64,000 nt of DNA from Odoribacter sp. Z80 (GTDB lineage: Bacteria; Bacteroidota; Bacteroidia; Bacteroidales; Marinifilaceae). Below are positions 7,126 through 39,178 of the stretch, piece after piece. Numbering within the stretch: the first letter of the stretch is position 1; each line of letters starts with the position of its first letter. The DNA lies in the NCBI RefSeq assembly GCF_009935865.1, contig NZ_QWEL01000002.1:344426-408425 (forward strand). Direction: 5' to 3'. The position numbers and the translations under genes were made by a program. Below the pieces are notes generated by a model that saw nothing but the letters and a program-made list of their open reading frames with translations, made no database searches and was not told where the DNA came from.

Positions 7126-10221
<3,096 letters not shown>

Positions 10222-18770: not shown

Positions 18771-21700
18771 ATGAAAAAACATACACTACTCAGAATAATC
18801 CTGTGGAGCATACTGTTCATATGCTACGCACCGATTGAGCTGACGGCACAACAAAAGAAATTGACCGTACAACTCAAAAACGGAACCTTTCCCCAATTGA
18901 CAGAGCAAATCCGGAAACAATCCGACTACACTTTCTTTTTCAACAACGCAATGATTTTAAACTTGAAAAAAATCAATATAGAAGCAAAAGAAGTGAGCCT
19001 CGATTCCATATTAAACACAGCCCTCAAAGGCTCCGGACTGACCTATACCATCAAAGACAAAACTGTTATCCTCTACTCCCGGGACACCCCGGAAGCCGCC
19101 AACAAAACGGTAAAAATCCAGGGACAGGTAAACGATGAAAAAGGAGTGTCCCTACCGGGTGCCAGTGTATTTATCAAGAACACCTCGGTCGGAACAACCA
19201 CCGACCAAAACGGGAACTATTCCATCCTTGTACCGGAAGTGATGGGCATGACCGTAGTTTTTACCTTTATCGGTAAAAAAAGCGAAGAAATGGTATACAC
19301 CGGCGACCGCTACATGAACGTCATACTTAAAGACACCTACAACGAAATAGGAGAAGTACAGGTGCGGGCACGGGCCAATATCAACGAAATAGATGTCCGT
19401 TCCAGAACCGGCGTAGTCAACGAAGTCGACGTCCGGCGAATGAACAACAAACCGATAATGGATGTAGCCCTGGCCCTCCAGGGAACTGTTCCGGGCTTGA
19501 TTGTCACCAACAAAGGTGACCTGGGAAGCAAACCAGAAATCCGCATTCGGGGCACTTCCTCCCTGCGTCCTGGAGATGCCGCCAATGAGCCTTTATACGT
19601 TCTGGACGGGAAAGTAATCTCATCGGATGCCTTCCTGACCTTAAACCCCAACGACATCAAAGAAATTAAAGTCCTCAAAGATGCCGCCGCCTGCGCTCTT
19701 TATGGAATCAAAGCAGCCAACGGAGTACTGGAAATCACCTCACAACGCGGAACTGCCGGGAAAATGATTTACAACTACAGCTTCAGTGCCGGCGTAACCT
19801 TACGGGGACGCAGAGGTGTACAAATGATGAATTCCGAAGAAAAGCTGGAATTGGAAAGACGTATGAAAAACCCGATAGCCCCCGGCTATCGCTACAGCGA
19901 AGACTACTACCGGAAATATCATGTCTCAGATCCTGAAATAAACCGGCTCATAGCAGAAGGACGCCAGATACTGGATTCCCTCAGCCGTATCAACACCGAC
20001 TGGTTCAAAGAGCTGCTCCGGAATAATTTCTATCAGGAACATAACCTCAGTGTCAAAGGCGGTTCCGAACAGACCAGCTTCTATTCATCCATCAACTATT
20101 CCCAACAGGGCGGACGTATACCCGGAAATGACATCAGACGGGTAACGGCCCGTCTCAGCGTCGACCAGACCATAACCTCCCGGACCTATGCCTCTCTCGG
20201 AGTCAGCGGCGGCTACGCCCTGACCAATTCACCCAACGGAACCACTTATTCTCCAACCGAATTGATTTATCAGCTCAATCCCTACGAATCCAAAAACGGG
20301 AAAGGAGAATTGGTTTCTTTTCCAGGGCGGACCTACAACGACCTCTTTAACCAATTCAGCAATAAATCAACCGATAAACGGGCAGGAATCTCCGGCAGCA
20401 TCAACTGCACAGCAATCAAAGGATTGGAAGTTGCAGCGGTCGCAGGAATCGATTATGTCCTGACAGAAAATCTAAGCATCACACCTCCTACCGCCTACTC
20501 CGAACTAACCAGCGGCGTACCGGAAAATCAGAGGGGAAAACTCACCAAAGACAAAAACACCCTCACCAATATATCCTCCAACATACGGCTCACCTACACC
20601 CGCACTCTGGGGAAACACGACCTGACTTTAGGTACCAACTTCGATTATTATGCCGACCACACCGACAATCTCGGCATCACAGGATACGGACTAAGCAGCA
20701 AAATGCAATCTCCCTCAGGAGTTAACCAATCCATAGAAGGAAACAGAAAACCCTCCTTCACCTCCAAAAACGAAAAAACAGCCCAATTAGGAGTCGGAGT
20801 CCTGATGGGATATTCATGGAATAATATATACGACCTGTTCGGTACCTACAAATGCGATGCTTCCTCCATCCTCCCCAAGGACAAACGCTGGAACTCCGCT
20901 TGGGCCGTCGGTGCCGGATGGGCATTGAAAAACTACGGTTTCCTGAAAAACAGTTTCATCCTCTCCGACCTGAAACTAAAAGCTTCCTACGGCTGCACAG
21001 CCAGCCTCCAGGGCGTGTCCCCCTCCTCTGCCGTAGCAACATTCCAGTACTCCCAAAACACTTACGGAGACCAGCAATTATTGACACTAATGGGCCTATA
21101 CAACTCAGCATTAAAACCGGAACAAACCATAGACATAAATGCCGGATTAACCATCGGCTTCTGCAATCGCGTCACCCTAAACCTCGGCTGGTATAAACGA
21201 CGCACCAAGGATGCCTTGCTGGATGTACCCATCCCCACCTCAAACGGATTCGTTTCCCTGAAACGCAACATCGGCATACTGGACAACAACGGAATAGAAG
21301 GAGAAATCCACGTCAAAATAATGGAAAACGACGAATGGAGAATGTCCGCCCGTCTCAATACGGCCTACAACCGCAACAAAGTCGTCGACCTCTATTATGC
21401 CGACCGCCTTTACACCTCTGAGGACCAATTAGTCCCGGATTTCGAAGTGGGAAAATCTTTCGATATGCTCTATGGTCCCGAATCCTTAGGCATTAACCCC
21501 ATTACCGGACTTCCCGTGTTCAAAGGCGCCGACGGACGGGAAATTGAAGCGACGGAAAACCTCAGCCGGGAAGATATGAAAGCCCTGGGCCACTCCACTC
21601 CCCCCTTCTCCGGCAGTCTTTTTTATTCCGTATCATACGGCAATTTCGACCTCGACATGGATTTCTATTTTGTCCTCGGTGGTAAAAAAGCCTACACATT

Positions 21701-22085
21701 CTCCTACGTCAGAGAACAGGACAACATCAACTACAACGCCATCAAAGGGCAGGTAAAAAACATGTGGTTTGAAAGAGGAGATGAAAACAAACTATACCAT
21801 ACCCCTTTCTACTCCTCCTCGGCTATTTACAACTTGAAAAACTACCCCAACAGCCGAACCGTCGGAAGCAGTGACTACCTCCGCATGTCTATGCTTTCCC
21901 TCAGATACCGGCTTCCTTACCGGCTCATTGAGAAAACCAAAAACGTCATACAATACGCGTCCATAGCCTTTCAGGCCTCTAACCTCTTCACCCTGACCCA
22001 CTACAAAGAGTCAGACCCCGAATCAGGTTCCCTCGTAGGCACACAACAACCCGTTTTCACACTGAATCTGAATTTATCTTTTTAA
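18771..22085 (+). CDS. SusC/RagA family TonB-dependent outer-membrane transporter with an N-terminal signalling (STN-like) extension.
   Basis: 1104 aa. Signal peptide, N-terminal extension, carboxypeptidase-regulatory-like domain (VKIQGQVNDEKGVSLPGASVFIKNTSVGTTTDQNGNYSILV), TonB-box region, and a C-terminal ...LNLNLSF aromatic terminus. Confidence 0.9.
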   Translation: MKKHTLLRIILWSILFICYAPIELTAQQKKLTVQLKNGTFPQLTEQIRKQSDYTFFFNNAMILNLKKINIEAKEVSLDSILNTALKGSGLTYTIKDKTVILYSRDTPEAANKTVKIQGQVNDEKGVSLPGASVFIKNTSVGTTTDQNGNYSILVPEVMGMTVVFTFIGKKSEEMVYTGDRYMNVILKDTYNEIGEVQVRARANINEIDVRSRTGVVNEVDVRRMNNKPIMDVALALQGTVPGLIVTNKGDLGSKPEIRIRGTSSLRPGDAANEPLYVLDGKVISSDAFLTLNPNDIKEIKVLKDAAACALYGIKAANGVLEITSQRGTAGKMIYNYSFSAGVTLRGRRGVQMMNSEEKLELERRMKNPIAPGYRYSEDYYRKYHVSDPEINRLIAEGRQILDSLSRINTDWFKELLRNNFYQEHNLSVKGGSEQTSFYSSINYSQQGGRIPGNDIRRVTARLSVDQTITSRTYASLGVSGGYALTNSPNGTTYSPTELIYQLNPYESKNGKGELVSFPGRTYNDLFNQFSNKSTDKRAGISGSINCTAIKGLEVAAVAGIDYVLTENLSITPPTAYSELTSGVPENQRGKLTKDKNTLTNISSNIRLTYTRTLGKHDLTLGTNFDYYADHTDNLGITGYGLSSKMQSPSGVNQSIEGNRKPSFTSKNEKTAQLGVGVLMGYSWNNIYDLFGTYKCDASSILPKDKRWNSAWAVGAGWALKNYGFLKNSFILSDLKLKASYGCTASLQGVSPSSAVATFQYSQNTYGDQQLLTLMGLYNSALKPEQTIDINAGLTIGFCNRVTLNLGWYKRRTKDALLDVPIPTSNGFVSLKRNIGILDNNGIEGEIHVKIMENDEWRMSARLNTAYNRNKVVDLYYADRLYTSEDQLVPDFEVGKSFDMLYGPESLGINPITGLPVFKGADGREIEATENLSREDMKALGHSTPPFSGSLFYSVSYGNFDLDMDFYFVLGGKKAYTFSYVREQDNINYNAIKGQVKNMWFERGDENKLYHTPFYSSSAIYNLKNYPNSRTVGSSDYLRMSMLSLRYRLPYRLIEKTKNVIQYASIAFQASNLFTLTHYKESDPESGSLVGTQQPVFTLNLNLSF

Positions 22086-22089
22086 ACTT

Positions 22090-23475
22090 ATGATTATGAA
22101 AACCAGTCGTTTATTATACATCGGATACATCTTACTCTGCGGATGCTCACTGAACATCCCACTGGAAGATCAATTCTCCGACCCGGACGCCATCACAGAC
22201 GTATCATCCGCACGCTCCCTGCTCGCTACCGCATACAACGACCTCCCCCAGCATATTTTTGAGTTTGCCGTTCTCTCGGACGACTTCTATCCTTCTTCCA
22301 AACTCATAAAAGATGCAGGTCTCCAAAACCTTTATCGCTGGAGAGAAGTGGAGCTGACCGAACTGGCAGACAACCTGTGGACAGAATACTATGCAGTCAT
22401 CTCCACCATCAACGCTTTACAAAACCGGTTGGATGCTGTCACAACCATCAGTCCGGAAGAAGAGAGCGAAAAAAACATCATCACCTGCGAAGCCAAGGCA
22501 CTAAAGGCAAAATGCTATTTCGACCTCCTGCGTTTGTTTGCCCCATCCTATCCGGGAAACGAAGAAAAAGAAGGCATCATCCTCAAAGATCAGGTGGAAC
22601 TGGATTACCTGCCCCGTTCCTCCGTCAAAAAATGCGTTACGGAAATCCGGCAGCTACTAAAAGAAGCCCGGCATCCGGACAACACCCCGGATAAAATCTA
22701 CTGGCTCTCCGACTACGCCGTAACCTACCTTCAGGCCGAAGTCGAATTATACACAGGCAACTACCCTGAAGTCCTCAACCTCACAAACGAACTGATTACT
22801 CTGTTCCCGGAAGAAACTCTGGGAAACAATCCTTACACTGCCTTGTGGAGCAACGAAACCAGCAAAGCACGGATTTTCGCCAAATATCAGTCCGACCAAA
22901 TCTACCAGGATATCCGGTATGACACCTACGCCTCAGGCGACTATCTCGTAATGAATGACGAAATCACATACTCCCCGCAAGACAAAAGAAAAACCTGGTC
23001 CGAAATAGAATTCGTCATGGACAACACACAACCGGTCCGGCTCTTCGGAAAATACAACAAAATGAACCGCGAAGAAATCCCCAGTATGTACGTCAACATC
23101 TGGCGGGCAGCAGGTATATGGCTCATGCGCGCCGAAGCGCTTGCCCGCACCTCAAAACCCGATGCCGCCACTGAACTGATGAACCGCTTCCTCACCCAAC
23201 GCGGAGCTGAACCCCTTGAAACCTTCACAAATCCGGAGAAACTGCTCGAACAGATTCTGGAAGAACGGCGCAAAGAATTTGTCGGAGAAGGCGAACGCTA
23301 TTTCGACCTCAAACGATGCCATAAAACCCTCAATAAATACAAAGAATACGGGAACGGCATACTTCTTACCCTACAACCCGGAGACTACCGTTGGACCCTG
23401 CCCATCCCCGCCTCCGAATACCGTTACAACGAAAAAATAAACCAAAACGAAGGTTGGCCAAAAATAAAAATTTAG
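22090..23475 (+). CDS. SusD/RagB family nutrient-binding outer-membrane lipoprotein.
   Basis: Lipoprotein signal (LLCGCSLN). Length of about 460 aa, placed directly after SusC. Carries the C-terminal ...GEGERYFDLKR motif characteristic of SusD. Confidence 0.8.
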   Translation: MIMKTSRLLYIGYILLCGCSLNIPLEDQFSDPDAITDVSSARSLLATAYNDLPQHIFEFAVLSDDFYPSSKLIKDAGLQNLYRWREVELTELADNLWTEYYAVISTINALQNRLDAVTTISPEEESEKNIITCEAKALKAKCYFDLLRLFAPSYPGNEEKEGIILKDQVELDYLPRSSVKKCVTEIRQLLKEARHPDNTPDKIYWLSDYAVTYLQAEVELYTGNYPEVLNLTNELITLFPEETLGNNPYTALWSNETSKARIFAKYQSDQIYQDIRYDTYASGDYLVMNDEITYSPQDKRKTWSEIEFVMDNTQPVRLFGKYNKMNREEIPSMYVNIWRAAGIWLMRAEALARTSKPDAATELMNRFLTQRGAEPLETFTNPEKLLEQILEERRKEFVGEGERYFDLKRCHKTLNKYKEYGNGILLTLQPGDYRWTLPIPASEYRYNEKINQNEGWPKIKI

Positions 23476-23497
23476 TTAAACATTTAAATTTAATACC

Positions 23498-24703
23498 ATG
23501 ATGAAAGCAATGAAAAACCTATCTTTAAGCCTGTTTCTGCTCATATATTGCGCAGGAATATTCAGTTGTTCCGATTCCGATGATGACGGATACTCCGGAA
23601 AAAACAAATTATACATCACAACCGACCAGGATCCCGTCATGATAGAATCCGACACAACTCCCCTACGGGCCAGCCTCATCATGACACGGGCTTACGCAAA
23701 AGACCAGACCTTTGAAATCTCCGTGACAAACACTACAAACGAAATGGACAACCTGGTGACGGTAAAACCCTCATCAGTAACCATTCCCTCAGGGGCAAAA
23801 GCGGTAAACTTTGACATCATCTCCAATGGTAGGGAAATCCTGAAAAACGAAGTCTACCTCGAAATCAGTGTGAAAGCCTTGCCCGAAACAGATATGGAAG
23901 TACACCAAATCCTTAAAATCAGATTAAAACCCGGCTTACGCAACCCCGAACTAAGCGAAGAACAAAAAGCCCTGTTAGAAAGTTACAAACAAAACGGACT
24001 CGACCTCAGCCAATGGATTGGAGTAATCCCCGTAAAAGTCAAAATAAACAGTCCGGCAGACGGCTTTTATGAACCTTTTATCACCGAATTTACGAAAGAA
24101 TACACCGGAAAAACCGTTATTACCCTAAGCGAACAGTCCACCGCAAACGCTCCCGTATTGAAAATGACGGAAAACCCGATGGGTCTGACAGAATACTTCT
24201 ACTTCATACTCCGTAAAGTCACCGTTGAAAACACCGAATACTGGACTCCGCAACCCGACATACCGGCCATGATGGAGCTGATCAATTTCTCGGCCGACAG
24301 CAAAGAAACATTTGATATGACATTAGACAATATCCGTCTCGGAATGCCTCAAAACGGAAAATCCGCCATCACCTTTACAGGTGAGAAATCCGAAGATGAC
24401 CCCATTACTATCGTCCCTTTCCATTACGACTATTCAGCCTGGAATCGCCTGAAAGAATTGGCAGATGCCGGCAATGAAATAGCACTCGCCTGTTCTGGCA
24501 ACTCTCAGACCCTGGATCCCCTCTTCCACCTGTTCACCACAGACATCAGCGAAGACGGATGGGAAAACGAACCCTCGGACTTCGTAGCCCCGGAAGGCAG
24601 CCTGAACATAAACGAAGGCAAAATGACCTTTATCTTCTCCTTCGATCACAGCGATGCCGGCGGTTATTCCCAGATAACCATTGAATATACCCTACCTGAA
24701 TAA
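23498..24703 (+). CDS. PUL-associated surface lipoprotein in the SusE/F position. Function unknown.
   Basis: Lipoprotein signal ...GIFSCSDSDDDG. 401 aa with no recognisable catalytic motif. Confidence 0.45.
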   Translation: MMKAMKNLSLSLFLLIYCAGIFSCSDSDDDGYSGKNKLYITTDQDPVMIESDTTPLRASLIMTRAYAKDQTFEISVTNTTNEMDNLVTVKPSSVTIPSGAKAVNFDIISNGREILKNEVYLEISVKALPETDMEVHQILKIRLKPGLRNPELSEEQKALLESYKQNGLDLSQWIGVIPVKVKINSPADGFYEPFITEFTKEYTGKTVITLSEQSTANAPVLKMTENPMGLTEYFYFILRKVTVENTEYWTPQPDIPAMMELINFSADSKETFDMTLDNIRLGMPQNGKSAITFTGEKSEDDPITIVPFHYDYSAWNRLKELADAGNEIALACSGNSQTLDPLFHLFTTDISEDGWENEPSDFVAPEGSLNINEGKMTFIFSFDHSDAGGYSQITIEYTLPE

Positions 24704-24711
24704 ATACAACA

Positions 24712-27534
24712 ATGCATATAGATAAAATCATTTCCATACTCTGTATCCTGATGCTGTCCTGCTGGACAGCACAGGGACAGCAGTACCCGAAAAGCGAAGC
24801 AATTGCCTTGCCCCAGGGAACCCTCTTCAAAAGTCTCCCCAACGGATTACGCTACATCCTCAAAGCAAACGACTTGCCCGGACATAAGATAGAATTCCGC
24901 TTAGTAATTCCGTCCGGGTCCCTTCGGCAAACCCGGCACGAAGGAGGAGTAGCCCATTTCCTGGAACACATGGCTTTCAACGGAACAACCCACTTTCCGG
25001 AAAAAGGCATCGTCAACTACCTCGAATCCCTGGGCGTCAAATATGGTTTCGGGATTAACGCTTTTACCGGATTTGACCGCACCATCTATATGTTCTCTAT
25101 TCCAACTGATCATCCGGAAGGCCTGGACCAGGCTCTGCTTATACTGAAAGACTGGCTGTGCGGCATCACCATTGCCCCCGAGGAAGTGGAAGGGGAAAAA
25201 GGCATTATCCTCGAAGAAGAACGGGGCTACGACACCGGTGACGTCTTCTACGACCTGAAAGTAAAAAACACCCGCTACAGCCGGCGGATGCCTCTGGGAA
25301 CACCAGAAGAGATACAAAACATGACAGCCCGGAAACTAAAAAAATTCTACCACAAATGGTATACCCCGGCATCAGCCGCATTAATCATCGTAGGCGACAT
25401 AGATACCACCCTTACCGAAAAAAAAATACAAGAACTGTTTGCCGGAATACCGGCCCATAAAACAACCGCCCGGGCCTATTCCCTGAACTATCCCCAAAAA
25501 ATCATTTATCAGGACATAGCAGATACCCTGCTCAGCCGCTCCTCTTTAGAACTGATTTTACCTAAACCAACCATCACCCAGCACACCTACGGAGACAAAC
25601 TGGAAAAAGCCAAAGAGACATTACTCGTTTCAGCCATTAACGAGCGTTTCAAAGCCCTGCAACTCAATGTCTCTCTCTCCAAACAATGGTACTTAGGTGA
25701 CAAAGACCACCTCGTACTCAGTTTCGAAGGGAAAAACGACACAGCCATACAAACTCAAATCAGCCAAGCCGTTAACGCCTTAAAAAATATCCGGCAAACA
25801 GGATTTTGTTCTGCCGAACTACAACATCTGAAAGAAAACATCATCCGCAAATCCGCTCATTTATCCACCGTAAAAAACTCGGACGAATGGTGTGAAGACT
25901 TCATCGACCTGCTCCTCAGCGGAGAACGTTATCTCCAGGATACCCTTCACCAAAACGGATTGGCACAGCACATTCGCAATGTTCAAAGCCGGGAACTCCA
26001 GACCCTGGCCCGGCAGTGGTTTTCAAACCCCGGAACAATCCTGGCAGCCTATCGCTATCATCCGGAAAAAGGTATAAGCTTAGATAAAAAAATGATCAAA
26101 GCAGCCTGGAAATCCGGCGAAAAAAGCCCTTGCCAGCCTTACGAATACATTGTCCGCGAGCAAGAAGAACAACAAACCGTACCACTACCCGCATTCCTTA
26201 CCCGCGAAATAACGCCTGCTCCGGCCTGCATAGCCGCAGAACGATGGATAGAAACACTGGGAATCAAGGAACTCCAACTCACAAACGGAGTACGGCTCAT
26301 CCTAAAACCGACCAAAGACGAAACCAAACAAATCACCATCCATACCTTTGCCCCCGGAGGTACCTCCTTGCTGACTCCCGACAATTATGCATTGTTAGAA
26401 GGCACAGCCGGCTATATGGAAATGGGAGGCATCGAAAAAATGGACTACGACACCTACGGAATGATGCTCGCCCAGGAAAATATGGCCTTCACAGTACTGT
26501 TGGAAACATACTGGCACGGTTGGATGGCCATGGCTCCCGCAGATAAAAGTACAGAACTGTGCCATCTCATTTACGAAAAATGCTTCTATCCTGAAAAAAG
26601 ATATGAAGACTTTGAAGAAATACGCCGGGACATGCTTGCTGCCCCGGAAAAAGAAACAGTACTCAGCAAAATGCTACGCAACGCTCCGGACCGTCAGCTA
26701 TCCAAACGGATGGACGAACTGATGGGAAACATCGTCCCATTCGGCAATAGTCCCGAAAATAAACAACAAATCGAAGCCCTCAACCTCGACAGCATTGCGG
26801 ACTTCTACCGGCAACTCTATACTAATCCCGACGGTATGACCTGCGTCGTATGCGGAAATTTTGACCTCCGGGAGGTTGAAAAAAAACTCGTCGCAACCCT
26901 TGGAGCCTTTCCCCGCCACCACAAACCCAATCAATGGGTGGACCCGCAATTCCAATTACCGGCTGCTTCCTACCAGGAAGAATTTCCAAACCAACATCCG
27001 AATCAAACCGTCTTCGACTATTTATTCTACGGACATCATAAAAACGGCCTACGCCACTCCCTGACATTAAAACTGGTCCGGGATGTCGTACGCAACCGCC
27101 TGCTTTCCATACTCAGGGAAAAAGAGTCCCTGCTTTACTCTCCCTACATTTCCCTGTTTTACAAAGGCTATCCGCAACCCACCTACTACTTTGACATCAA
27201 CGCCTCGGTCGATACCAAATACACCGCCAAAGTAGACAAATTACTCAGGGAAATTATCCGGGACATCCAGGAAAAACCGGTTACACCCGAAGAACTGTCG
27301 GCATTACAACGCTCATTTATAGTTACCCGACGCGAATCCATAAACGACTACGCCACGGCAGAGTGGAAAAAATACCTGAGCGGAGCCCTGAAAGACGGAG
27401 AGGACCTCGACGAACTGGCACGCTACGAAGAAATACTGTACTCTATCACCCCTGAGGATATCCGGAACGCCTGCCGGCAATATTTCAACCTGAACAACTA
27501 CGTTCTCCTGCACATGGGACCTTTTGAAAAATAA
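24712..27534 (+). CDS. Secreted M16 family zinc peptidase (insulinase/pitrilysin-like, two-halves architecture).
   Basis: Signal peptide. Inverted zinc motif HFLEHMAF (HxxEH) near the N-terminus. 940 aa. Confidence 0.85.
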   Translation: MHIDKIISILCILMLSCWTAQGQQYPKSEAIALPQGTLFKSLPNGLRYILKANDLPGHKIEFRLVIPSGSLRQTRHEGGVAHFLEHMAFNGTTHFPEKGIVNYLESLGVKYGFGINAFTGFDRTIYMFSIPTDHPEGLDQALLILKDWLCGITIAPEEVEGEKGIILEEERGYDTGDVFYDLKVKNTRYSRRMPLGTPEEIQNMTARKLKKFYHKWYTPASAALIIVGDIDTTLTEKKIQELFAGIPAHKTTARAYSLNYPQKIIYQDIADTLLSRSSLELILPKPTITQHTYGDKLEKAKETLLVSAINERFKALQLNVSLSKQWYLGDKDHLVLSFEGKNDTAIQTQISQAVNALKNIRQTGFCSAELQHLKENIIRKSAHLSTVKNSDEWCEDFIDLLLSGERYLQDTLHQNGLAQHIRNVQSRELQTLARQWFSNPGTILAAYRYHPEKGISLDKKMIKAAWKSGEKSPCQPYEYIVREQEEQQTVPLPAFLTREITPAPACIAAERWIETLGIKELQLTNGVRLILKPTKDETKQITIHTFAPGGTSLLTPDNYALLEGTAGYMEMGGIEKMDYDTYGMMLAQENMAFTVLLETYWHGWMAMAPADKSTELCHLIYEKCFYPEKRYEDFEEIRRDMLAAPEKETVLSKMLRNAPDRQLSKRMDELMGNIVPFGNSPENKQQIEALNLDSIADFYRQLYTNPDGMTCVVCGNFDLREVEKKLVATLGAFPRHHKPNQWVDPQFQLPAASYQEEFPNQHPNQTVFDYLFYGHHKNGLRHSLTLKLVRDVVRNRLLSILREKESLLYSPYISLFYKGYPQPTYYFDINASVDTKYTAKVDKLLREIIRDIQEKPVTPEELSALQRSFIVTRRESINDYATAEWKKYLSGALKDGEDLDELARYEEILYSITPEDIRNACRQYFNLNNYVLLHMGPFEK

Positions 27535-27550
27535 ATAAAAACACATTGAT

Positions 27551-28417
27551 ATGAAATACATCCTTACCCTACTCTGCACTCTCCTCCTTTTTATTCAAAC
27601 CAAAAGCCAGGAAAAAAAAGCCTACAACCTCTTCGACGCCTCAGGCAAACAAATCAGTTACCAGGAAATGATGAAAACCCTGAAAACACAAGATGTTGTA
27701 TTCATCGGCGAAATCCATAATTGTCCGATAGCCCACTGGCTCGAATATGAAATCATCAAAGACCTCTATCGGAAGCACGGTGACAAACTGACCATCGGAG
27801 CTGAAATGCTGGAAGCCGACAACCAGCTCATCCTCAACGAGTACCTCGACGGACTTATCAGCTCCGACCGGTTCGAAGAAGAAGCCCGACTCTGGCCCAA
27901 TTACACCACCGACTACGCCAACGTAATCGGATTAGGACGCGAACACCATTTACCCGTTATCGCAACCAACGTCCCACGCCGCTACGCCAATATGGTCAAA
28001 AACGGAGGATTCGAAGCCCTGGAGAAACTATCTCCCGAAGCTCTCCAATACATAGCTCCGCTTCCCATAGAATATACTCCCGACGAAGAAGCAAGCGCAA
28101 TGTTCGGACTCATGCTGATGACATCTGCCAAAAAGACTAATCCGGAGAATATAGCAAAAGCACAAGCTATCAAAGACGCTACCATGGGATGGCTCATTTC
28201 AAAAAACCTCAGATCAAAATTCGTACACCTCAACGGGAACTACCATTCCGACTTCAAAAAAGGCATTATCACCTATCTCAACCTATATCGCCCAGGCCTC
28301 AAAATCGCCAACATCTGCTCTGTACGCCAGGACGAAATAGATAAACTGGGAGAAGAAAACCAGGGACGGGCAGACTTTTATATCTGTGTTCCCACCGACA
28401 TGACCATGACCTACTGA
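27551..28417 (+). CDS. ChaN family (Tiki/TraB/ChaN superfamily) lipoprotein, a putative haem-binding protein.
   Basis: Signal peptide. ...QDVVFIGEIHNCPIAHWLEYEIIKDLYRKHGDKLTIGAEMLEADNQ... typical of ChaN/GumN-like proteins. Sits 16 bp after the M16 gene. Confidence 0.65.
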   Translation: MKYILTLLCTLLLFIQTKSQEKKAYNLFDASGKQISYQEMMKTLKTQDVVFIGEIHNCPIAHWLEYEIIKDLYRKHGDKLTIGAEMLEADNQLILNEYLDGLISSDRFEEEARLWPNYTTDYANVIGLGREHHLPVIATNVPRRYANMVKNGGFEALEKLSPEALQYIAPLPIEYTPDEEASAMFGLMLMTSAKKTNPENIAKAQAIKDATMGWLISKNLRSKFVHLNGNYHSDFKKGIITYLNLYRPGLKIANICSVRQDEIDKLGEENQGRADFYICVPTDMTMTY

Positions 28418-28485: not shown

Positions 28486-29226
28486 ATGGAAGAAAAAAAA
28501 CGGCTTACCGAACCCAACATCCCCCAGCCCGACCCCCGATACAAAATCAAGGTCATGGCGAAGGGTCCCTATTTAGTATACGGAAACCCACCGTTATCTC
28601 AGGAAATTTTAGTGGAAAACAACGAACACACGATATGGAAATACGAATCCGGACAAACGTTCTCTGCCGCCAACCAGCCGACCCCGCTGTGCCGCTGCGG
28701 ACATTCCCATAACCATCCCTACTGCGACGGAGCACATGCACACGCAGAATGGGAGTCCGCACTCACCGCCGACAATATTCCTCTGTTGGAAGATGCAGAA
28801 CTATATGACGGGGAGACCGTATCATTAGCCGACAATATCAAATATTGTTCCCATGCCCGGATATGCCTGGCAAAAGGTACCGTATGGGAACTCATCAAAA
28901 CTTCCGGCAATCCGGAAGACCGGGACAACGCAATCCACGAAAGCACCCTCTGCCCCTCCGGACGCCTCAAACTTTGGGATAAACAAACGGAAAACTTCAT
29001 CGAGCCTCCTTTGAAACCGGCAATCAGCCTCATCGAAGACCCGCAAATGAAATGTAGCGGCCCGCTATGGGTCAAAGGCGGTATACCCATAAACGGACCC
29101 GACGGAACAAAATACGAACAACGCAACCGGGTCAACCTCTGCCGCTGCGGCGCATCTTCCAACAAACCTTTCTGCGACGGAACACACGTCCGGATCCGGT
29201 TTAACGACAAACTACCCCTCAGCTAA
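28486..29226 (+). CDS. CDGSH iron-sulfur domain protein (two CDGSH motifs).
   Basis: CRCGHSHNHPYCDGAH and CRCGASSNKPFCDGTH. Confidence 0.8.
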   Translation: MEEKKRLTEPNIPQPDPRYKIKVMAKGPYLVYGNPPLSQEILVENNEHTIWKYESGQTFSAANQPTPLCRCGHSHNHPYCDGAHAHAEWESALTADNIPLLEDAELYDGETVSLADNIKYCSHARICLAKGTVWELIKTSGNPEDRDNAIHESTLCPSGRLKLWDKQTENFIEPPLKPAISLIEDPQMKCSGPLWVKGGIPINGPDGTKYEQRNRVNLCRCGASSNKPFCDGTHVRIRFNDKLPLS

Positions 29227-29691
29227 CCATCGTTTATACGGACATTTACTTAACATCCCGTTATAATAACGCAAATCTCCGGTAACTTCCGGACCCAGCC
29301 ATTCAGGCCGTTCAAAAGCCTCGTCCCGATTTTTCAATTCCACTTCCGCCACCACCAAACCCTCATTCTCCCCATAAAACTCATCCACCTCAAAAACATG
29401 CTTTCCCACCCGGACAAAATAACGGACCTTATCTATCACTCCCGGTTCACACAACTGCAACAACTCCCGGGCTTCCTCCACGGCAATCTGCTTCTCCCAT
29501 TCATAACGGCTCAATCCCTCCGAATCACTTTTACCTTTTATCGTAATAAATCCCTGGTCACCCCGGACCCGGACCCGGACCGTGCGTTCCGGAACAGAAC
29601 ACAGATACCCCTGGACAATCCGAACCGATTGATAGGCCAGGGACTTGAATTCTCCGGCCACCAGAAACTTCCTTTCAATTTCCTGCGCCAT
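29212..29691 (-). CDS. CYTH domain protein (triphosphate tunnel metalloenzyme; CyaB-like class-IV adenylyl cyclase / triphosphatase fold).
   Basis: N-terminal EIERKFLV motif plus the alternating acidic and basic beta-strand residues of the CYTH tunnel. 159 aa. Confidence 0.8.
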   Translation of the reverse strand: MAQEIERKFLVAGEFKSLAYQSVRIVQGYLCSVPERTVRVRVRGDQGFITIKGKSDSEGLSRYEWEKQIAVEEARELLQLCEPGVIDKVRYFVRVGKHVFEVDEFYGENEGLVVAEVELKNRDEAFERPEWLGPEVTGDLRYYNGMLSKCPYKRWLAEG

Positions 29692-29702
29692 CTCTGAAAA
29701 AC

Positions 29703-32700
29703 TTACTTCTTATTCCTTTTAGGCTTTCTCTCCGGCACTTTAACCTCCGCCGGCATCTTCCTGCCTTCCAAAAATTTCACCACAGCATATTTGGCAGCAG
29801 CTATCGTTTCCCGGTTCACCTTCTCAATCACACTTCCCCGGGCCACATCTTCCGTAGTCACATACCCTTCCATCAACAACAACTGTACAATCATATTATT
29901 AACGTTCGTTTCCTCACTATACCCTTCAGCAATATACAACCGGTCCATATGTTCGGAAAACTCACGCGCAAACTCCGGGTAATTGGGTAAACTCATCAAC
30001 TCCTCGAAAGTCTCGCTAAAACTGCTCAACTCAATATTCAAATTCGGATTGACCAGCAAAGGACTGAATTCTTTTTTCGGATCCACCGGTTTAAAATCCA
30101 CCAGATTACCCATATCCACCTTCCGGCTGATATCATCCATCCGGCGATAATCCGCTTTCTTCATATTCTCTAACTGATAAATAAAGAAATTATAACGCCA
30201 CAATTCCGAGCTATTCATTTCCCCTCCGAAAATAGGACGGTACTTCTCATTCAACAGACGCTTCACCCGGATTTTACCTTCATTGATTTCAGGCCGGGTC
30301 ACCCGCACTTCCTGAATCATCCGCTTCAACTCCATAGCCGCTTTTTGCGGTCCGGTTATCTCACGGCCCTTCTTGCCGATTTCTGTGGAAAGCATTCCGC
30401 ACTGAATATTCCGGGCTTTGCCTTCTCCCTTCTCTCCACCCCGCATCACACGCACCAAATTCAATACAGAATCCAGCTGTCCCTCCTCTGCTATAAAAGG
30501 CTGTCCGCCCGGTGTGCTGGCCAACGAATCGAAAATACTGCTGAACATCTTCCGGTCAATCTTCATCTCCCGGCTTTCTCCCTCCCCATAAGATACAGTT
30601 GCCATAAAACGGTTTTGTATCATATCAAAAGAAACCGTCTCAATAGTATAACATACACCGTCACGGCGGAACTGCTTCCCGTCAAAAATCAGATTCACCA
30701 CCTCCGTCACATCGATTTTATCCAGAAGTTTATAAGAAGAAGCCAGATAATACTGCTTCTCTCCTTCCACATAATCCCAGTCCAGAATCACATCCAGATA
30801 ATTCCCGTGACGGGCAATCACATCCACGATATTCTTATCCGCCGTATAACGCTTCAGCGTACGCTGAAAATTCGGGCCGTCCTGGCTGGTAGCCTTCTCC
30901 TTTCGCTCGCCGTGAGCATCCATATACAACAGGAAATTCTCCGGATTATCCACCCGCGTAATCCCGGCCTCCTCCTTCGAATAATTACCCGCACTCAGCA
31001 TAATGTCAATCTTATAAGGCATGGTAATATCACACATACCGCTCACCGTACTCCGTGAATTCAAATCTTCCACATTACTGTCGGCACTGCTCTCAAATAA
31101 ATACTTATAATATTTGATATAATCCGGATCAAAATCCGTCGTCCGGGAAAAATCACCCACTTCCGTTCCGATACCATAAAGATTACCCTCCGCATCCTGA
31201 AACTCATGGAACATATCTCCCGCAATCAATTTCACAGAACGCACGCCTTCCAGGTTATTCCGCAACCATTTCAAAATAAAGGCAGCTATCATCTCCGACT
31301 TGCCCACTCCACTGTCTCCGTTAATCTCCACCACAAAAATACTGCCGTCATTCTCCTCCACGGCAAACAACGAACCGTGACGCGGATTACCGCCAATCTC
31401 CTTTATCTTCTCATTAATCACCGTCAGACGGGGCTTCTTCACATCCCCGAAATAATCCACCTTCTGCTTCAACGGAGTAACAATAGTCTTGATATTTCCG
31501 TTCGGTCCCGGAATATCAAAATAACCGATCTGAGGGAAAGAAATCAACTTCTCCGGGGCACCCAGAAAACTGATCACATCCGGTACAAAATTCGTAATAT
31601 CGGTAAGAGCTATATCCTCCGTATAATTCAACCGGTAATTATCCGTCAGATACTTCATATACCCCTTCTGGAAAATCACCAACTCCTTCACCATCCCATG
31701 TTTCACTACCTTACAACGGTAGTCATCAGAATCCATATTCGCAATAAACCGGGCCAGACGATTCGTAAAGAAAGAAGAATCCGGACGCAAATCCAACAAC
31801 TTCAGATAATCATTCGGTCCGGCCTCCTCCATCTGCACCTTCGACCGGGCATCCAAACGATCCACTTTATGGAAAGGATATTCCCGCTTCTTTGCATCCG
31901 TCACAATACGGGTATGCTCCTGTACCGGCTGCTCGGAAGAAATCACCCCGCACTTCCGCATCAACTCATTGATCCAGCTAATCCGCCCCCCCTGGAAAGT
32001 CTCCAAAGCCTTATTCTCCATCTCAAAGCCTTTATAAATTGAAATACCATGCTGAACCATTTCATTCACACTTGAATTCTGTTTCATAAAAGCCGTCTCC
32101 ACCAAACGTACCAGCGTATGCGTATAACGCTTATAATAATCCGTTCCTTTCGTCCGCTTAATCATACTGATATAAAACAGCACCACCTTACGGCTCACCC
32201 GGTGAATCTCCCCCTCCGCCACCTTAATGTCACGGCGCCGCATAATATAATCATTAATCTCCTTCAATTGCGAAGGCATAATCTCCGTGATAAATTCCTC
32301 GGTAAACATTTTCACCTCTCCATCCTCACAAGCTCCGATCTTATCACTGAAATATTTCAGCTTCGCCGAAACCAACCGGTAAAAAGAATGGTCATTATTC
32401 AGCAAATAAAGGAAAAGAATCTTGTCCGTCACCGACATACCGTCCCGGTTCATTCCCGAAGCAATAGAATCCATGACATAACCCATGCACTTCTGAGCCA
32501 GCAGAGTTTCCTTAAACTCAGGCAACGCCCGCAACCGGTTGATAAACTCATCCACCCAAATCTGTAAATTCAGGTCCCCCAGCTGAATACCGATAATCTC
32601 TTCAAAAGTCTCTCCGGCCACCCGTACAATCTCCTTTCGGCTGGGTTCCAGGCTTTCTTTCTCAAACGGCAGGTTAAAATGCAACAAAATCTCCCGGATA

Positions 32701-35700
32701 TATTTCTTAATAATCACATTAATCCCTTCCAGTTTCGATTTATCCAATCCCGGACTTCCGGTAGCATCAATAGCCAGAATCTTCACCTTACTGTCAGAAA
32801 ACAAAATGTGCTCCATCTCAATCAGAATCTCCCGCATGACATTCTTCTCCATCGGATCATCAAGCACATTAAAATTAGGCTGGAAAGTCTTCTTATTCGT
32901 GATATACTTCAAAATAACCGCCTTACTGTACTTCGAACTCACCGTATTAAAATCCAGGTCAGCAATTGCCGGCACCTGCTTATAAATCTGAGCCAGCAAA
33001 TTCTCATACACCTTCGTAAAAGCTGCACTGCGGATAAATTCAAAAACATCCCGGCACGAACCAATCTTATCCCCATGCAACTCAATCACTGAATTTACCG
33101 AACGGTCAATCGTAGTGATACTCACCCCGCTACGCTCAGGCGAAGCATGATAAAGTGTCCGTATATCGCGGATTTGCAAAGAAGGAGCCTTATCCTTCTT
33201 AAATCCGGCAGACAAAGGAAAATCCCCGATAACCGCTTCGATCAAATCCTGCGTCCTCCCATAAGCAAATATCTCCTCTAAAATAGTATGGCTTTCCACC
33301 TCCTTATATTCCGGAGCTAAACGCTTCCCTGCAAACATTGTCCAATACTTCACGAAAATCGTGAAAGCATCTTCCAATTCATACTTAAACACCTGCTTAC
33401 TCTCTTCCGTATCAGACAAAAAACCGCCAATGGCAAAACGGACCAATCCCGTAGGATACGGCACCGCAGCAATACCCCGGTTCAGCGCCAGATACTGGCA
33501 GAAACACAACAAGTCCGCATAAGAAAATCCTTCACCCACCCGGAAATTAAACAAATAAGAACCATCCGAAGGCAACCAGGTCACGTTCGTCCCCTCAAAC
33601 CGGGCAACCACCCGCTGAGCCACATCCTTCGCCCAATTCATACGCTGCAGTGACTCACTGCGGAAATTCTTATTCACACGGAAACGGTTTAAATTTTCTA
33701 CCAACCGTTTCTGATAATAAACAAAAAACGGTTCATTCTCATACTTAAAATCATCCGGTAAGGCCAGAATATCCAACTTATCCAAAGCCACCAATTCATC
33801 CAACAGAAAAATATACAACGGACTACCCTCAAAACCAGCTGTCTTATGCAATTGCCGGTTAACAACACTATTTGCATTCGACTTCTCAATCCGTCCGATC
33901 TGTTCATTGATAAAACGCACCAACGTCTCCTTAATCTTATAGCGGGAAGCATTTTTCGGCAATTCGCCCTCAAGCGTATCTTTAATCTTCTTCGCTACCT
34001 GAGCTATTTCCAACAGATTATTCAACATCAGCAAAGAATTGTTATTTCCGTGAGCGCTCGAATTCTGCTGCCGCACAAAAGCAGCCACAGAAGCAGCCTG
34101 GGGAGTAACCGCCAAAGCCCCTAAACGATCGCCCGTAGCCGATAAATTCTTCGTTGTAGACAAAGAAGAAACCGCCCGTATATTAGCCTGAGCATTGATA
34201 TTATTAATAATATAACGCGATATAGTGCGCCATTTCGGCATATTCTTATCCGTAACCTTCACACTGTCCGCATAAGCCTCATCTAAAAACAAGGTAATCT
34301 TGCTCGTATTCATCAGTTTCAGAAACGAATTCAGCGCTTCCGTATTAAAATCCGTATATCCGGTCGGATTATTCGGATCATTAATCAAAATAGTCGTATT
34401 TTCACAAAACAAATCCCACAGACTTCCACTATCATCAAACAAAGACAAAGTAGATTTAATCCGAAGCAACTTATCCGTCAAACGCTCATAAGCCAAACGC
34501 CCGTCAGGTAAATTCTCAATCTCTATATCAAACGGATTAATATCAAAACTGTCATCCGGCAACAAATCCTTATACTCCCACGCCTGCATCGCATTATAAA
34601 TAACATAAGGCTTCGGACGGCCATGGGGATGAAACAACAAATCCCGGATAATCATCTGCACCGAATCAGATACAGAGGTCTGCTCCAGATTTCCCAATGC
34701 CGACAAAAACTCCTTCACCACCTCCTGCTCCTCCGGAGACAAAGCCCGGTACTTCTCCCGGATACCCAAGTCATTCAGGAAATTATCATACCGGCCCTTA
34801 TTATTCGCATCGTTATCCACCTTCGTAATATAAGCCTGATACTTCTCCAGGAACAGGTTAATCCCGAAATTCTTATGGAAATGATTCTTTAAAGTCCGTT
34901 CATAATTACTCGGAATAATACTCAGAATCAACTCACAAGCCCGGTATACCTTCTCATCCAACCGATGCAAAGGCTTCTGTAACAAATATTGGCCATAAGT
35001 GCGTATCTGATTCCGACCGCCTCCCTCCAATACACTCAACACCTGAATCTGCGGACTGTCGGAATAAAAATACTGCCGTATACGGCTTTCAAATTCCTCT
35101 ATCAGCTCCCGTGTCTGTACTTGCCGCTTATCCTCCTTGTGGCAATTCTCCAGGAAATAAATAAAATCCCGTAGCTTCTCCAACGAATACTTATCCTGAA
35201 CAATCTTCCGGGAGAACACATCTAACTTAAACACATTCAGGCGTTTCACTGCATCGGTAGCCGTTCCGAGCTGTTCTTGCAGGATATGATTGATTTCCTT
35301 CTCATACTCCCGTATCTGAATCTCAATTTTTTCACGGAATTCAGCCAAAAAAGAAAGATTGACATTCTCCAGAATCAACCGCAGATTCAACTGCGTATTA
35401 GCCGGCGAACCCAATTTCTTGGTATGCACCTTATTCAGCGTATTGATGATTCCATTGTGAAAACAGAACACCAAAGAAGTATTGGAGCTGCGGGACTCCT
35501 TCGAATCGTCTACAATCACTAAACGCGTCAGCAAAGGAAACCACTTCTCTCCCGAAAAAGGATTCACCCGCATATGGCGTGCTTTCACCACAAAAACAGA
35601 AGTCGTATCCACACACATCTGCTCGAAAAGCTCCTCAGCAGAAGGATTCTCCAACACCTGCACACTATTACGGCTGAAAACATCCCCCCGAATCAAACCA

Positions 35701-36392
35701 ACGGCTTTATCCGCATTTCCGGAGACCACCGTAGTAATCATCCCGTTCAATCCCTTAAAATTGACAGCCCAGCGCATCCGGTTCAGGAAATCGGCTTTCT
35801 CCGCCCCGGTTGTATAATGCGTACTCTGACTAATCATTTGCTCCAGGGTATCCATTAAGTAATTCCAGTGAGCCTCATTCAAATCACCGGTCACCCCGAT
35901 AACATCCCGGTATTTTCGCAAATCCCTGACCTGACCGCCCAACTGCACCTGTGAAATAAACTCTACGTGGCTGCTTCGCACCGGAGGTGTCCCCACCGAA
36001 AAATCATGCGTATCTTTAATATTCCTCAAAAGGGCCCGCGCATCCGGATTCACCATCTCCGTATCTAAAAACTCGTTAATCCTCTTTACAAACTCTCCCC
36101 GCCGTCCGCTCAGCTCAAAAGCTTTCGAATGATTATGAGGACAAAGCATCAAAGACACATCCGTATACCCCGGAATATCTTCCCTGAATTTCAGCAGATA
36201 ACGGTTAATCTCCGATTGCTGTGCCGTAGGGTCGTCCGGTTCCTCAAAACAAAGTTTCACAAAACTCGTCAGATTATCATAAATATGACGCGGCAGAAAA
36301 ATTTCCGCCCGCTCCCCTAACGATTCATACAGATTCAATAATTGCCGGGCTTCATTACTCAGAAACGCCCTGGGTTCTCCTTTGATTTTCAT
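29703..36392 (-). CDS. Giant (2229 aa) cytoplasmic multidomain protein of unknown function. The only recognisable parts are a class-I aminotransferase-fold (PLP) domain at about aa 560-960 and an HprK-like P-loop kinase domain at about aa 1670-1740.
   Basis: Single uninterrupted ORF with no signal peptide or TM segment. Aminotransferase motifs: INDPNNPTG (aa 670-678), LFLDEAYAD (aa 701-709), SLSTTKNLSATGDRLG (K748). HprK-like beta-strand plus Walker A: RHGSLFAVEENDGSIFVVEINGDSGVGKSE (aa 1671-1700), followed by VKLIAGD (HprK has LVADD). Confidence 0.6.
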   Translation of the reverse strand: MKIKGEPRAFLSNEARQLLNLYESLGERAEIFLPRHIYDNLTSFVKLCFEEPDDPTAQQSEINRYLLKFREDIPGYTDVSLMLCPHNHSKAFELSGRRGEFVKRINEFLDTEMVNPDARALLRNIKDTHDFSVGTPPVRSSHVEFISQVQLGGQVRDLRKYRDVIGVTGDLNEAHWNYLMDTLEQMISQSTHYTTGAEKADFLNRMRWAVNFKGLNGMITTVVSGNADKAVGLIRGDVFSRNSVQVLENPSAEELFEQMCVDTTSVFVVKARHMRVNPFSGEKWFPLLTRLVIVDDSKESRSSNTSLVFCFHNGIINTLNKVHTKKLGSPANTQLNLRLILENVNLSFLAEFREKIEIQIREYEKEINHILQEQLGTATDAVKRLNVFKLDVFSRKIVQDKYSLEKLRDFIYFLENCHKEDKRQVQTRELIEEFESRIRQYFYSDSPQIQVLSVLEGGGRNQIRTYGQYLLQKPLHRLDEKVYRACELILSIIPSNYERTLKNHFHKNFGINLFLEKYQAYITKVDNDANNKGRYDNFLNDLGIREKYRALSPEEQEVVKEFLSALGNLEQTSVSDSVQMIIRDLLFHPHGRPKPYVIYNAMQAWEYKDLLPDDSFDINPFDIEIENLPDGRLAYERLTDKLLRIKSTLSLFDDSGSLWDLFCENTTILINDPNNPTGYTDFNTEALNSFLKLMNTSKITLFLDEAYADSVKVTDKNMPKWRTISRYIINNINAQANIRAVSSLSTTKNLSATGDRLGALAVTPQAASVAAFVRQQNSSAHGNNNSLLMLNNLLEIAQVAKKIKDTLEGELPKNASRYKIKETLVRFINEQIGRIEKSNANSVVNRQLHKTAGFEGSPLYIFLLDELVALDKLDILALPDDFKYENEPFFVYYQKRLVENLNRFRVNKNFRSESLQRMNWAKDVAQRVVARFEGTNVTWLPSDGSYLFNFRVGEGFSYADLLCFCQYLALNRGIAAVPYPTGLVRFAIGGFLSDTEESKQVFKYELEDAFTIFVKYWTMFAGKRLAPEYKEVESHTILEEIFAYGRTQDLIEAVIGDFPLSAGFKKDKAPSLQIRDIRTLYHASPERSGVSITTIDRSVNSVIELHGDKIGSCRDVFEFIRSAAFTKVYENLLAQIYKQVPAIADLDFNTVSSKYSKAVILKYITNKKTFQPNFNVLDDPMEKNVMREILIEMEHILFSDSKVKILAIDATGSPGLDKSKLEGINVIIKKYIREILLHFNLPFEKESLEPSRKEIVRVAGETFEEIIGIQLGDLNLQIWVDEFINRLRALPEFKETLLAQKCMGYVMDSIASGMNRDGMSVTDKILFLYLLNNDHSFYRLVSAKLKYFSDKIGACEDGEVKMFTEEFITEIMPSQLKEINDYIMRRRDIKVAEGEIHRVSRKVVLFYISMIKRTKGTDYYKRYTHTLVRLVETAFMKQNSSVNEMVQHGISIYKGFEMENKALETFQGGRISWINELMRKCGVISSEQPVQEHTRIVTDAKKREYPFHKVDRLDARSKVQMEEAGPNDYLKLLDLRPDSSFFTNRLARFIANMDSDDYRCKVVKHGMVKELVIFQKGYMKYLTDNYRLNYTEDIALTDITNFVPDVISFLGAPEKLISFPQIGYFDIPGPNGNIKTIVTPLKQKVDYFGDVKKPRLTVINEKIKEIGGNPRHGSLFAVEENDGSIFVVEINGDSGVGKSEMIAAFILKWLRNNLEGVRSVKLIAGDMFHEFQDAEGNLYGIGTEVGDFSRTTDFDPDYIKYYKYLFESSADSNVEDLNSRSTVSGMCDITMPYKIDIMLSAGNYSKEEAGITRVDNPENFLLYMDAHGERKEKATSQDGPNFQRTLKRYTADKNIVDVIARHGNYLDVILDWDYVEGEKQYYLASSYKLLDKIDVTEVVNLIFDGKQFRRDGVCYTIETVSFDMIQNRFMATVSYGEGESREMKIDRKMFSSIFDSLASTPGGQPFIAEEGQLDSVLNLVRVMRGGEKGEGKARNIQCGMLSTEIGKKGREITGPQKAAMELKRMIQEVRVTRPEINEGKIRVKRLLNEKYRPIFGGEMNSSELWRYNFFIYQLENMKKADYRRMDDISRKVDMGNLVDFKPVDPKKEFSPLLVNPNLNIELSSFSETFEELMSLPNYPEFAREFSEHMDRLYIAEGYSEETNVNNMIVQLLLMEGYVTTEDVARGSVIEKVNRETIAAAKYAVVKFLEGRKMPAEVKVPERKPKRNKK

Positions 36393-37674: not shown

Positions 37675-38982
37675 TCATTGCCGGGAAGTCTTGAACTCCT
37701 TGAACACCTTTTTAACCTCATCCACATAATCCAGCTTCTCCCAGGTAAACAGTTCCACCTCTTTTTCCACGGTAGGCCAGTAATTAGAAGTAAACACCTT
37801 CTTTACCACCTGCGGGTTGCGGCCCATATGTCCGTAACTGGCTGTCTCCTGATAAATCGGATTGCTCAATTTCAGGCGTTCGACAATCGCCCGTGGACGC
37901 AAGTCAAATATTTCATTTACCTTCTCCGCAATCTCAGCATCTGTCAGTGCCACTTTCGCAGTACCATACGTATTCACATACACACCCACCGGTCTGGCAA
38001 CACCGATAGCATACGAAATCTGAATCAACATTTCATCGGCAACACCGGCTGCCACCATATTCTTCGCAATATGCCGGGCTGCATAAGCAGCAGAACGGTC
38101 CACCTTTGAAGGGTCTTTTCCGGAGAAAGCCCCGCCACCGTGCGCACCTTTACCTCCATACGTATCTACGATAATTTTCCGTCCCGTCAATCCCGTATCT
38201 CCGTGAGGTCCCCCGATTACAAACTTACCGGTAGGATTCACAAACAAAATCAGATTCTTGTCAAACAGATTTTGTACCCGCCGGGGCAACAAAGCCTTCA
38301 CCCGGGGCAATAAAATATCAATAATATCTTTTTTAATCCATTCCACCATCGCCTCATCCGCTTTCAGGCAAGCTTCCGGAGTCTCGTTTGCCGGCTGAAT
38401 AAACTCATCGTGCTGGGTGGAAATAACAATGGTATGAATACGGGCCGGCTTTCCGTCATCTCCATATTCAATCGTCACCTGCGATTTTGAGTCGGGACGC
38501 AGATATTGCATCAACTGTCCCTCCTTCCGGATCTTCGCCAGTTCGATCAACAGCAGGTGAGCCAACTCCAAAGAAAGCGGCATGTAATTATCGGTTTCAT
38601 TCGATGCATATCCGAACATCATACCCTGGTCGCCGGCTCCCTGTTCCATCGGGTCTTCCCGGACCACACCCCGGTTAATATCCGGCGATTGTTCGTGGAT
38701 AGCCGAAAACACTCCGCAGCTGTTCCCGTCAAACATATATTCGCTCTTCGTATAACCGATTTCATTGATGACCTCACGGGCCACCTGCTGAACATCCACA
38801 TAAGTTTTAGTCTTAATCTCTCCGGCAATCACCGTTTGCCCGGTAGTAACCAACGTCTCGCAAGCCACTTTTGCTTCCGGATCAAAAGCAATGATACGGT
38901 CGAGCACAGCGTCTGAAATCTGATCGGCAACCTTATCAGGATGTCCTTCCGATACGGATTCTGAAGTAAATAAATATCCCAT
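37675..38982 (-). CDS. metK: S-adenosylmethionine synthetase.
   Basis: [28 protein letters not shown]... plus the GGGAFSGKD signature. Confidence 0.95.
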
Positions 38983-39178
38983 AATTTAATTTTAGACCTT
39001 TGATTGTAGACTGCGGATTACAACTCCCGAAACAATTGCAGATCACACATCTAAAATCATAAATTAATACTACGGGAAAGGCAATGGATGGTTGAATTCA
39101 GAAGTAATGCATTTTAGCAATTTTTTTCTGTGGTTGCAATCAGCCAAATCTTTCCACAATGACGTCGCAAAGGTACAA

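Follow-up and report, generated by a model that had tools for sequence, protein, structure and literature searches.

The small CYTH gene that follows a giant gene in Odoribacter sp. Z80 likely encodes a tri- or polyphosphatase of the NeuTTM/CthTTM type. The gene was placed behind the giant gene recently and within a restricted lineage and is probably transcribed by read-through from it, but nothing indicates that their two products act jointly. Judged from the sequence comparisons presented here, the two genes are neighbours by local chance and do not form a conserved two-gene unit. The CYTH gene is an ordinary, already annotated gene, and its tight spacing is normal for this compact genome. 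The term window is used below for the whole stretch of 64,000 nucleotides that was analysed.

The CYTH gene, which encodes a stand-alone triphosphate tunnel metalloenzyme (TTM) of the NeuTTM type, is located at positions 29212-29691 of the minus strand and specifies a protein of 159 amino acids starting from an ATG at 29691, as given in the ORF list. The giant gene occupies positions 29703-36392 of the same strand. It encodes an uncharacterised PLP and PEPCK-like P-loop protein of 2229 amino acids and terminates in a TAA stop codon at 29703-29705. The minus-strand spacer between this stop codon and the CYTH start (29692-29702) measures 11 bp and reads GTTTTTCAGAG, and the junction, read directly from the sequence, is TAA-GTTTTTCAGAG-ATG. 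Hence, the sequence-only reading, in which the CYTH gene follows the giant gene after 11 bp with the same orientation, was right in all its coordinates. The start codon is also correct, as the orthologues have the same N-terminus, MAQEIERKFLV, in the alignment. At its 3' end, the CYTH gene overlaps by 15 bp (29212-29226) with a convergent CDGSH gene at 28486-29226 of the plus strand, which encodes a protein of 246 amino acids with two zf-CDGSH domains (E 2.2e-34 over two stretches) and a Fer4_19 domain (E 5e-10) according to Pfam. Just before the CDGSH gene ends a co-directional series of plus-strand genes (18771-28417) for a SusC-like TonB receptor, a SusD-like protein, a DUF4929 protein, an M16 peptidase and a ChaN/Cofac_haem_bdg protein.

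Both the 11-bp gap and the convergent 3' overlap are ordinary for the window. The median gap between same-strand neighbours is ~18 bp, and it is 11 bp or less in 10 of the 27 pairs, while overlaps, one of 15 bp and two of 4 bp, are present in three of the six convergent pairs. The overlap between the CYTH and CDGSH genes codes for no more than the four C-terminal residues on either side (LAEG and LPLS, each followed by the stop codon), and both tails fall outside the conserved domains. In the alignments, the LAEG tail of the CYTH protein runs past the end of most orthologues, and that of the CDGSH protein varies. In relatives, 115-270 bp lie between the two genes. Thus, the overlap is real, but the earlier suggestion that it is unusual and may couple the expression of the two genes is not supported, because the overlap is not conserved, the tails it encodes vary, and such overlaps are found in half of the convergent pairs.

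In Bacteroidetes, the -7 promoter consensus is TAnnTTTG. The minus strand lacks this motif from the CYTH start up to position 31334, i.e., over 1.6 kb of upstream sequence. This absence is weak evidence, because the motif is not enriched in the window as a whole, where 47 copies were found and 55 expected. Since the motif is lacking and the 11-bp gap offers no space for a promoter, read-through from the giant gene is the simplest expectation, and the CYTH gene is probably transcribed in this way in Odoribacter sp. Z80. Co-transcription of the two genes is plausible in view of their arrangement. A scan for sigma-70 promoters and terminators was discarded, as the counts were not clearly above those in shuffled sequences and the consensus is unsuited to Bacteroidota. 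An Rfam scan of the 26-40 kb region detected no RNA element where the giant gene meets the CYTH gene. A SAM-II long-loop riboswitch (RF01726, 64.8 bits, E 7e-11) is located at 39104-39163 of the minus strand, upstream of a gene for S-adenosylmethionine synthetase (37675-38982, minus strand).

The identification of the small ORF product as a CYTH protein was borne out by a match to PF01928 over residues 3-135 (E 2.5e-12, 47.4 bits), well above the gathering score of 23.2 bits. The protein is 100% identical to the NCBI entry 'CYTH domain-containing protein [Odoribacter sp. Z80]', and no NCBIfam model matches it. Its closest solved relative is NeuTTM, NE1496 (structures 2FBL/3TYP), with 39% identity over 150 amino acids (E 3e-18), from which an eight-stranded β-barrel tunnel fold can be predicted. 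The ExExK hallmark, as defined in PMC8233210, is present as E4-I-E6-R-K8 and is invariant across 11 orthologues. The xRxR region reads T37-V38-R39-V40-R41, in which both arginines are kept and invariant and a small residue, Thr37, occupies the W/Y position. The ExE motif, of which the second glutamate binds metal 2 (PMC8233210), is found in A115-E116-V117-E118-L119, and both glutamates are invariant in the alignment of the orthologues. Furthermore, Y29 and K52, also invariant among the 11 orthologues, align with Tyr-28 and Lys-52 of NeuTTM, the proposed catalytic dyad of that enzyme (PMC3440374).

The sequence-only reading had considered a signalling-nucleotide role for the CYTH protein. One reading of this kind is that it is a class IV (CyaB-type) adenylyl cyclase (AC-IV) that makes cAMP. 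This agrees with its membership of the CYTH superfamily, in which bacterial proteins often carry an adenylyl cyclase annotation, but the motifs make it extremely improbable. AC-IVs are recognised by HFxxxxExExK, by a small residue replacing the first arginine of xRxR and by the change of ExE to ExA (PMC8233210), and the protein fails on all three. Ahead of EIERK there is MAQ alone, i.e., three residues with neither H nor F, so that the HF motif is absent and there is no space for one. The gate-keeper arginine R39 and the second glutamate of ExE, E118, which are both replaced in all AC-IVs (PMC8233210), are retained. In addition, NeuTTM, the closest characterised relative, is described as acting on inorganic triphosphate with high specificity and as having no significant cyclase activity (PMC3440374). 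The rule for thiamine triphosphatases (ThTPases) is W/YxRxR, with the aromatic residue being needed for stacking of the thiamine (PMC8233210). This aromatic residue is absent from the CYTH protein, which has Thr37 at this position, or Arg39 in an alternative BLAST register. As the protein fails both the AC-IV and the ThTPase rules and keeps R39, R41 and E118, it falls in the class of TTM phosphatases. NeuTTM and CthTTM both belong to sequence-similarity cluster 2 (PMC8233210). By its sequence, the CYTH protein is a NeuTTM-type TTM, a known kind of protein already annotated as a CYTH protein in NCBI. A place for it in a defence system was also considered. The PADLOC models gave one marginal match (REase_II, E 8e-4, 16 bits), which was judged to be noise, and the idea was abandoned.

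From these conserved residues, we infer both the substrate and the metal mechanism of the enzyme. The triphosphate moiety would be bound in the basic β-barrel tunnel by R39, R41, K52 and R90, while two divalent metals (Mg2+/Mn2+) would be held by E4/E6 and E116/E118. Hydrolysis of the tunnel-bound triphosphate would then proceed by a two-metal mechanism that uses the Tyr29/Lys52 pair. The substrate is most probably PPPi or short-chain polyphosphate, and no cAMP would be formed.

The genomic context of the orthologues bears on this substrate assignment. There are at least 8000 homologues of the CYTH protein, the best 120 of which are 71-100% identical to it and include proteins from Bacteroides sp. 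519 (75%) and a Balneolaceae MAG (72%). In Bacteroides sp. 519, the CYTH gene stands alone between nrdD/nrdG and ribH. A metagenome scan yielded 80 CYTH loci (L091-L170) that encode proteins 59-71% identical to the query. Across families of the Bacteroidota, identity within the orthologue group is 59-77%, and the group is highly conserved and widespread in this phylum. Two contexts recur among the 80 metagenome loci. In the first, represented by 20 loci, a protein of 214 amino acids is encoded ahead of the CYTH gene (at a median distance of 5 bp) and/or a DASS-type (Na_sulph_symp) transporter after it, with genes for a Porin_O_P protein and a lamin-tail-domain protein upstream of the CYTH gene. 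In the annotated loci L082 and L088-L090, this cluster is completed by PhoU_div, PHO4 and alkaline phosphatase. The phosphate-scavenging cluster, seen at 2920-5785 of L082, at 4570-15222 of L088 and in about 20 of the loci L091-L170, comprises genes for PhoU_div, PHO4, Porin_O_P, the lamin-tail-domain protein, the 214-amino-acid protein, CYTH, the DASS transporter, a protein of ~500 amino acids and alkaline phosphatase. Its composition suggests the uptake and hydrolysis of short polyphosphates.

The 214-amino-acid proteins encoded directly ahead of the CYTH gene form a family (L098, 1434-2078, and 15 homologues) with 59-82% identity and without a Pfam or PDB match. The idea that they are degenerate CYTH paralogues was rejected, as hhalign gave a probability of 0.1, which is not significant. 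The window also contains a gene for a Porin_O_P homologue (49239-50360, plus strand), which lies ~20 kb off and is unlinked to the CYTH gene. The second recurrent context, found in 28 of the 80 loci, consists of a gene for a release-factor-like protein (PCRF/RF-1) before and/or a gene for an MgtC/DUF4010 membrane protein ~50 bp downstream of the CYTH gene (e.g., L105, 10544-11875, and L127, 6330-7496). In some of these loci, a gene for a TonB-dependent OMP_b-brl_3 protein lies beyond it.

The phosphate-acquisition context of the orthologues fits hydrolysis of PPPi or short-chain polyphosphate by the CYTH protein. Alternatively, the enzyme could act mainly on an organic triphosphate, such as NTPs, thiamine triphosphate or 5'-triphosphate RNA. 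TTM enzymes are promiscuous, with CthTTM being less specific than NeuTTM (PMC3440374), and sequence cannot fix the preference. Yet, a mainly organic substrate is unlikely, as the aromatic residue for thiamine stacking is missing, the orthologues are found within inorganic-phosphate clusters with a member of the phosphate/polyphosphate porin family, PHO4, PhoU_div and alkaline phosphatase, and NeuTTM, the closest solved relative, is described as specific for PPPi (PMC3440374). The cellular role of specific triphosphatases has been called unclear (PMC3440374), and the presence of CYTH genes in phosphate-scavenging clusters offers a testable physiological context for them.

The giant protein has an Aminotran_1_2 match in Pfam at residues 665-798. 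AlphaFold2 models were made of its two halves from an alignment of 32 sequences each, with mean pLDDT values of 73 and 69. In Foldseek searches of the PDB, the model of the N-terminal half resembled fold-type-I aminotransferases, with KAT II (2xh1) as the best match (E 3e-6 over ~450-500 columns), whereas that of the C-terminal half resembled GTP-dependent PEP carboxykinases (9e35 and 4ywb; E 3.5e-5 to 1e-4 over ~350-380 columns). The motifs NPTG, DEAY and SxSTTK(747) are invariant, as is a Walker-A-like sequence, GDSGVGKSE, at residues 1691-1699. To judge from the models, the giant protein is a fusion of a fold-type-I PLP domain (~residues 450-1030) with a PEPCK-like P-loop domain (~residues 1550-2000), and its earlier description as a PLP and P-loop protein holds at the level of the fold. 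Large helical regions are also present. Fold comparison was needed to identify the P-loop domain, because a search of PDB sequences with a profile of the giant protein gave weak matches to ACC synthase and aminotransferases alone, at residues 667-794. The matches to NCBIfam models were likewise weak and partial ones to aminotransferases, far below the cutoffs. The PADLOC defence models gave no match, and a literature search on the giant protein returned nothing relevant. The protein is strongly conserved across Bacteroidota, Ignavibacteria and Calditrichia-type lineages and merits a study of its own, apart from the CYTH protein.

The sequence-only reading had further proposed that the CYTH and giant genes constitute a coherent two-gene module, and it had named in advance, as the finding that would speak against such a module, a lack of conserved linkage in the two directions. 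Linkage was judged within 10-kb flanks, starting from either gene. At least 346 homologues of the giant protein exist, of which the best 120 are of full length (~2200 amino acids) and 56-93% identical to it. When each GTDB species was scanned with one genome, 241 relatives of the giant gene were obtained, at 51-93% identity over the full length, of which the best 80 loci were taken with up to 10 kb of flanking sequence. These loci were from Odoribacter, Rikenellaceae/Alistipes, Mucinivorans, Marinilabiliaceae, Ignavibacteriales, Calditrichaceae and one Acidobacteriota MAG, and 65 of them had the 600 bp or more of downstream sequence that made them judgeable. In tblastn searches with the CYTH protein of the window, a CYTH gene was detected within 10 kb of the giant gene at three of the 80 loci (L001, L004 and L017), and a single one of the 65 judgeable genomes (L001) has it directly downstream. 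In L004 and L017, it is located 1.45 kb past the giant gene, behind a gene for a protein of ~400 amino acids. An unfiltered search with a CYTH profile HMM found no further CYTH protein among the 962 flanking ORFs. The first gene downstream of the giant gene varies widely in size and strand across the loci, and all-against-all clustering of the flanking ORFs of the best 80 loci revealed no conserved neighbour of the giant gene. The largest cluster of shared neighbours covered 13 of the 80 loci, and its members lay on either side of the giant gene, a median of 4.5 kb away.

The reverse search gave a similar picture. By tblastn, the giant gene was found in none of the 80 metagenome CYTH loci, 51 of which had at least 2 kb and 33 at least 7 kb of upstream sequence, and it is also absent from the CYTH loci L081, L082 and L088-L090. 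Thus, no conserved linkage was seen in either direction within the flanks covered, i.e., CYTH genes occur apart from the giant gene, which in turn occurs without CYTH, and the proposed two-gene module did not survive this comparison.

Linkage was seen within one subclade of Odoribacter. In every sampled relative with a giant protein at least 88% identical to that of the window, the CYTH gene is found downstream on the same strand, with variable spacing. The gap is 6 bp in L001, as compared to 11 bp in the window and 205 bp in L084. In seven other loci (L004, L017, L085-L087, L171 and L172), one DUF418 gene is inserted between the giant gene and the CYTH gene, and in L173 (1-10483) the two are separated by 6.5 kb with six genes, encoding a DUF5690 protein, an unknown protein, a HAD hydrolase, an Aminotran_5 protein, a CDGSH protein and an unknown protein of 256 amino acids. 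The stretch that follows the giant gene is prone to rearrangement. The 205-bp gap in L084 contains the sequence TATCTTTG at 9952-9959, 41 bp before the CYTH ATG, which matches the Bacteroidetes -7 consensus, and this promoter-like motif makes it probable that the CYTH gene has its own promoter there. Where the giant protein is 81-86% identical, the CYTH gene is absent from the site (L002, L003, L068, L048 of Odoribacter laneus, L049, L005 and L024), and in L068 the CDGSH gene directly follows the giant gene. This variable spacing, together with the absence of the CYTH gene at 86% identity or less, shows that the adjacency is young, confined to one subclade and not kept as a tight pair. Thus, the CYTH gene came to lie behind the giant gene recently and in a restricted lineage, within a region that is plastic in some Odoribacter genomes.

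These observations also weigh on the possibility that the CYTH and giant proteins form a functional module, in which the CYTH protein makes or removes a nucleotide or triphosphate signal or a by-product of the giant enzyme. The shared strand, the 11-bp gap without a promoter-like motif nearby, the presence of CYTH downstream in all sampled relatives with a giant protein at least 88% identical, and the nucleotide-binding P-loop domain of the giant protein are all in line with such a module. However, it is very unlikely, given that the adjacency is seen in one of 65 judgeable genomes, that all 80 CYTH loci lack the giant gene, that close relatives have one to six unrelated genes or a promoter-bearing gap of 205 bp between the pair, that relatives at 81-86% identity lack CYTH at the site, and that no partner of any kind is conserved next to the giant gene. 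The persistence of CYTH on the same strand near the giant gene in the subclade leaves a small chance of a lineage-specific coupling. One form that this could take is that, in the Odoribacter subclade, CYTH was recruited as a 'metabolite-proofreading' triphosphatase that disposes of a product of the giant enzyme, either inorganic triphosphate or a triphosphorylated side product. This form is very unlikely; if it were true, the pair would be a young, lineage-specific functional unit. The preferred reading remains that of a tri- or polyphosphatase of a known type, recently placed behind the giant gene.

Among the known TTM systems, NeuTTM of Nitrosomonas europaea (2FBL/3TYP) is much like the Odoribacter CYTH protein. 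The two are similar in size, with a solved chain of 153-155 amino acids vs. 159 amino acids, and both consist of a single CYTH domain. The ExExK motif, the RxR arginines, Lys52, the equivalent of Tyr28 and the ExE motif are all conserved in the Odoribacter protein. The two differ in that they are from different phyla and that the activity of the Odoribacter protein is predicted from its sequence. CthTTM of Clostridium thermocellum is likewise a short, stand-alone bacterial TTM, the likeness in this case being drawn from its published description and its cluster. Its PPPase activity is high, it lacks significant adenylyl cyclase activity, and it is reported to be less substrate-specific than NeuTTM (PMC3440374). 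With CyaB and YpAC-IV, the Odoribacter protein has the CYTH superfamily and the ExExK motif in common, but their HF motif, the change of arginine to a small residue and the ExA motif are all absent from it. Finally, YgiF of E. coli also has a CYTH catalytic domain with PPPase activity, but this is part of a two-domain CYTH-CHAD protein (PMC3440374), whereas the Odoribacter CYTH protein is a single-domain protein and has Lys52.
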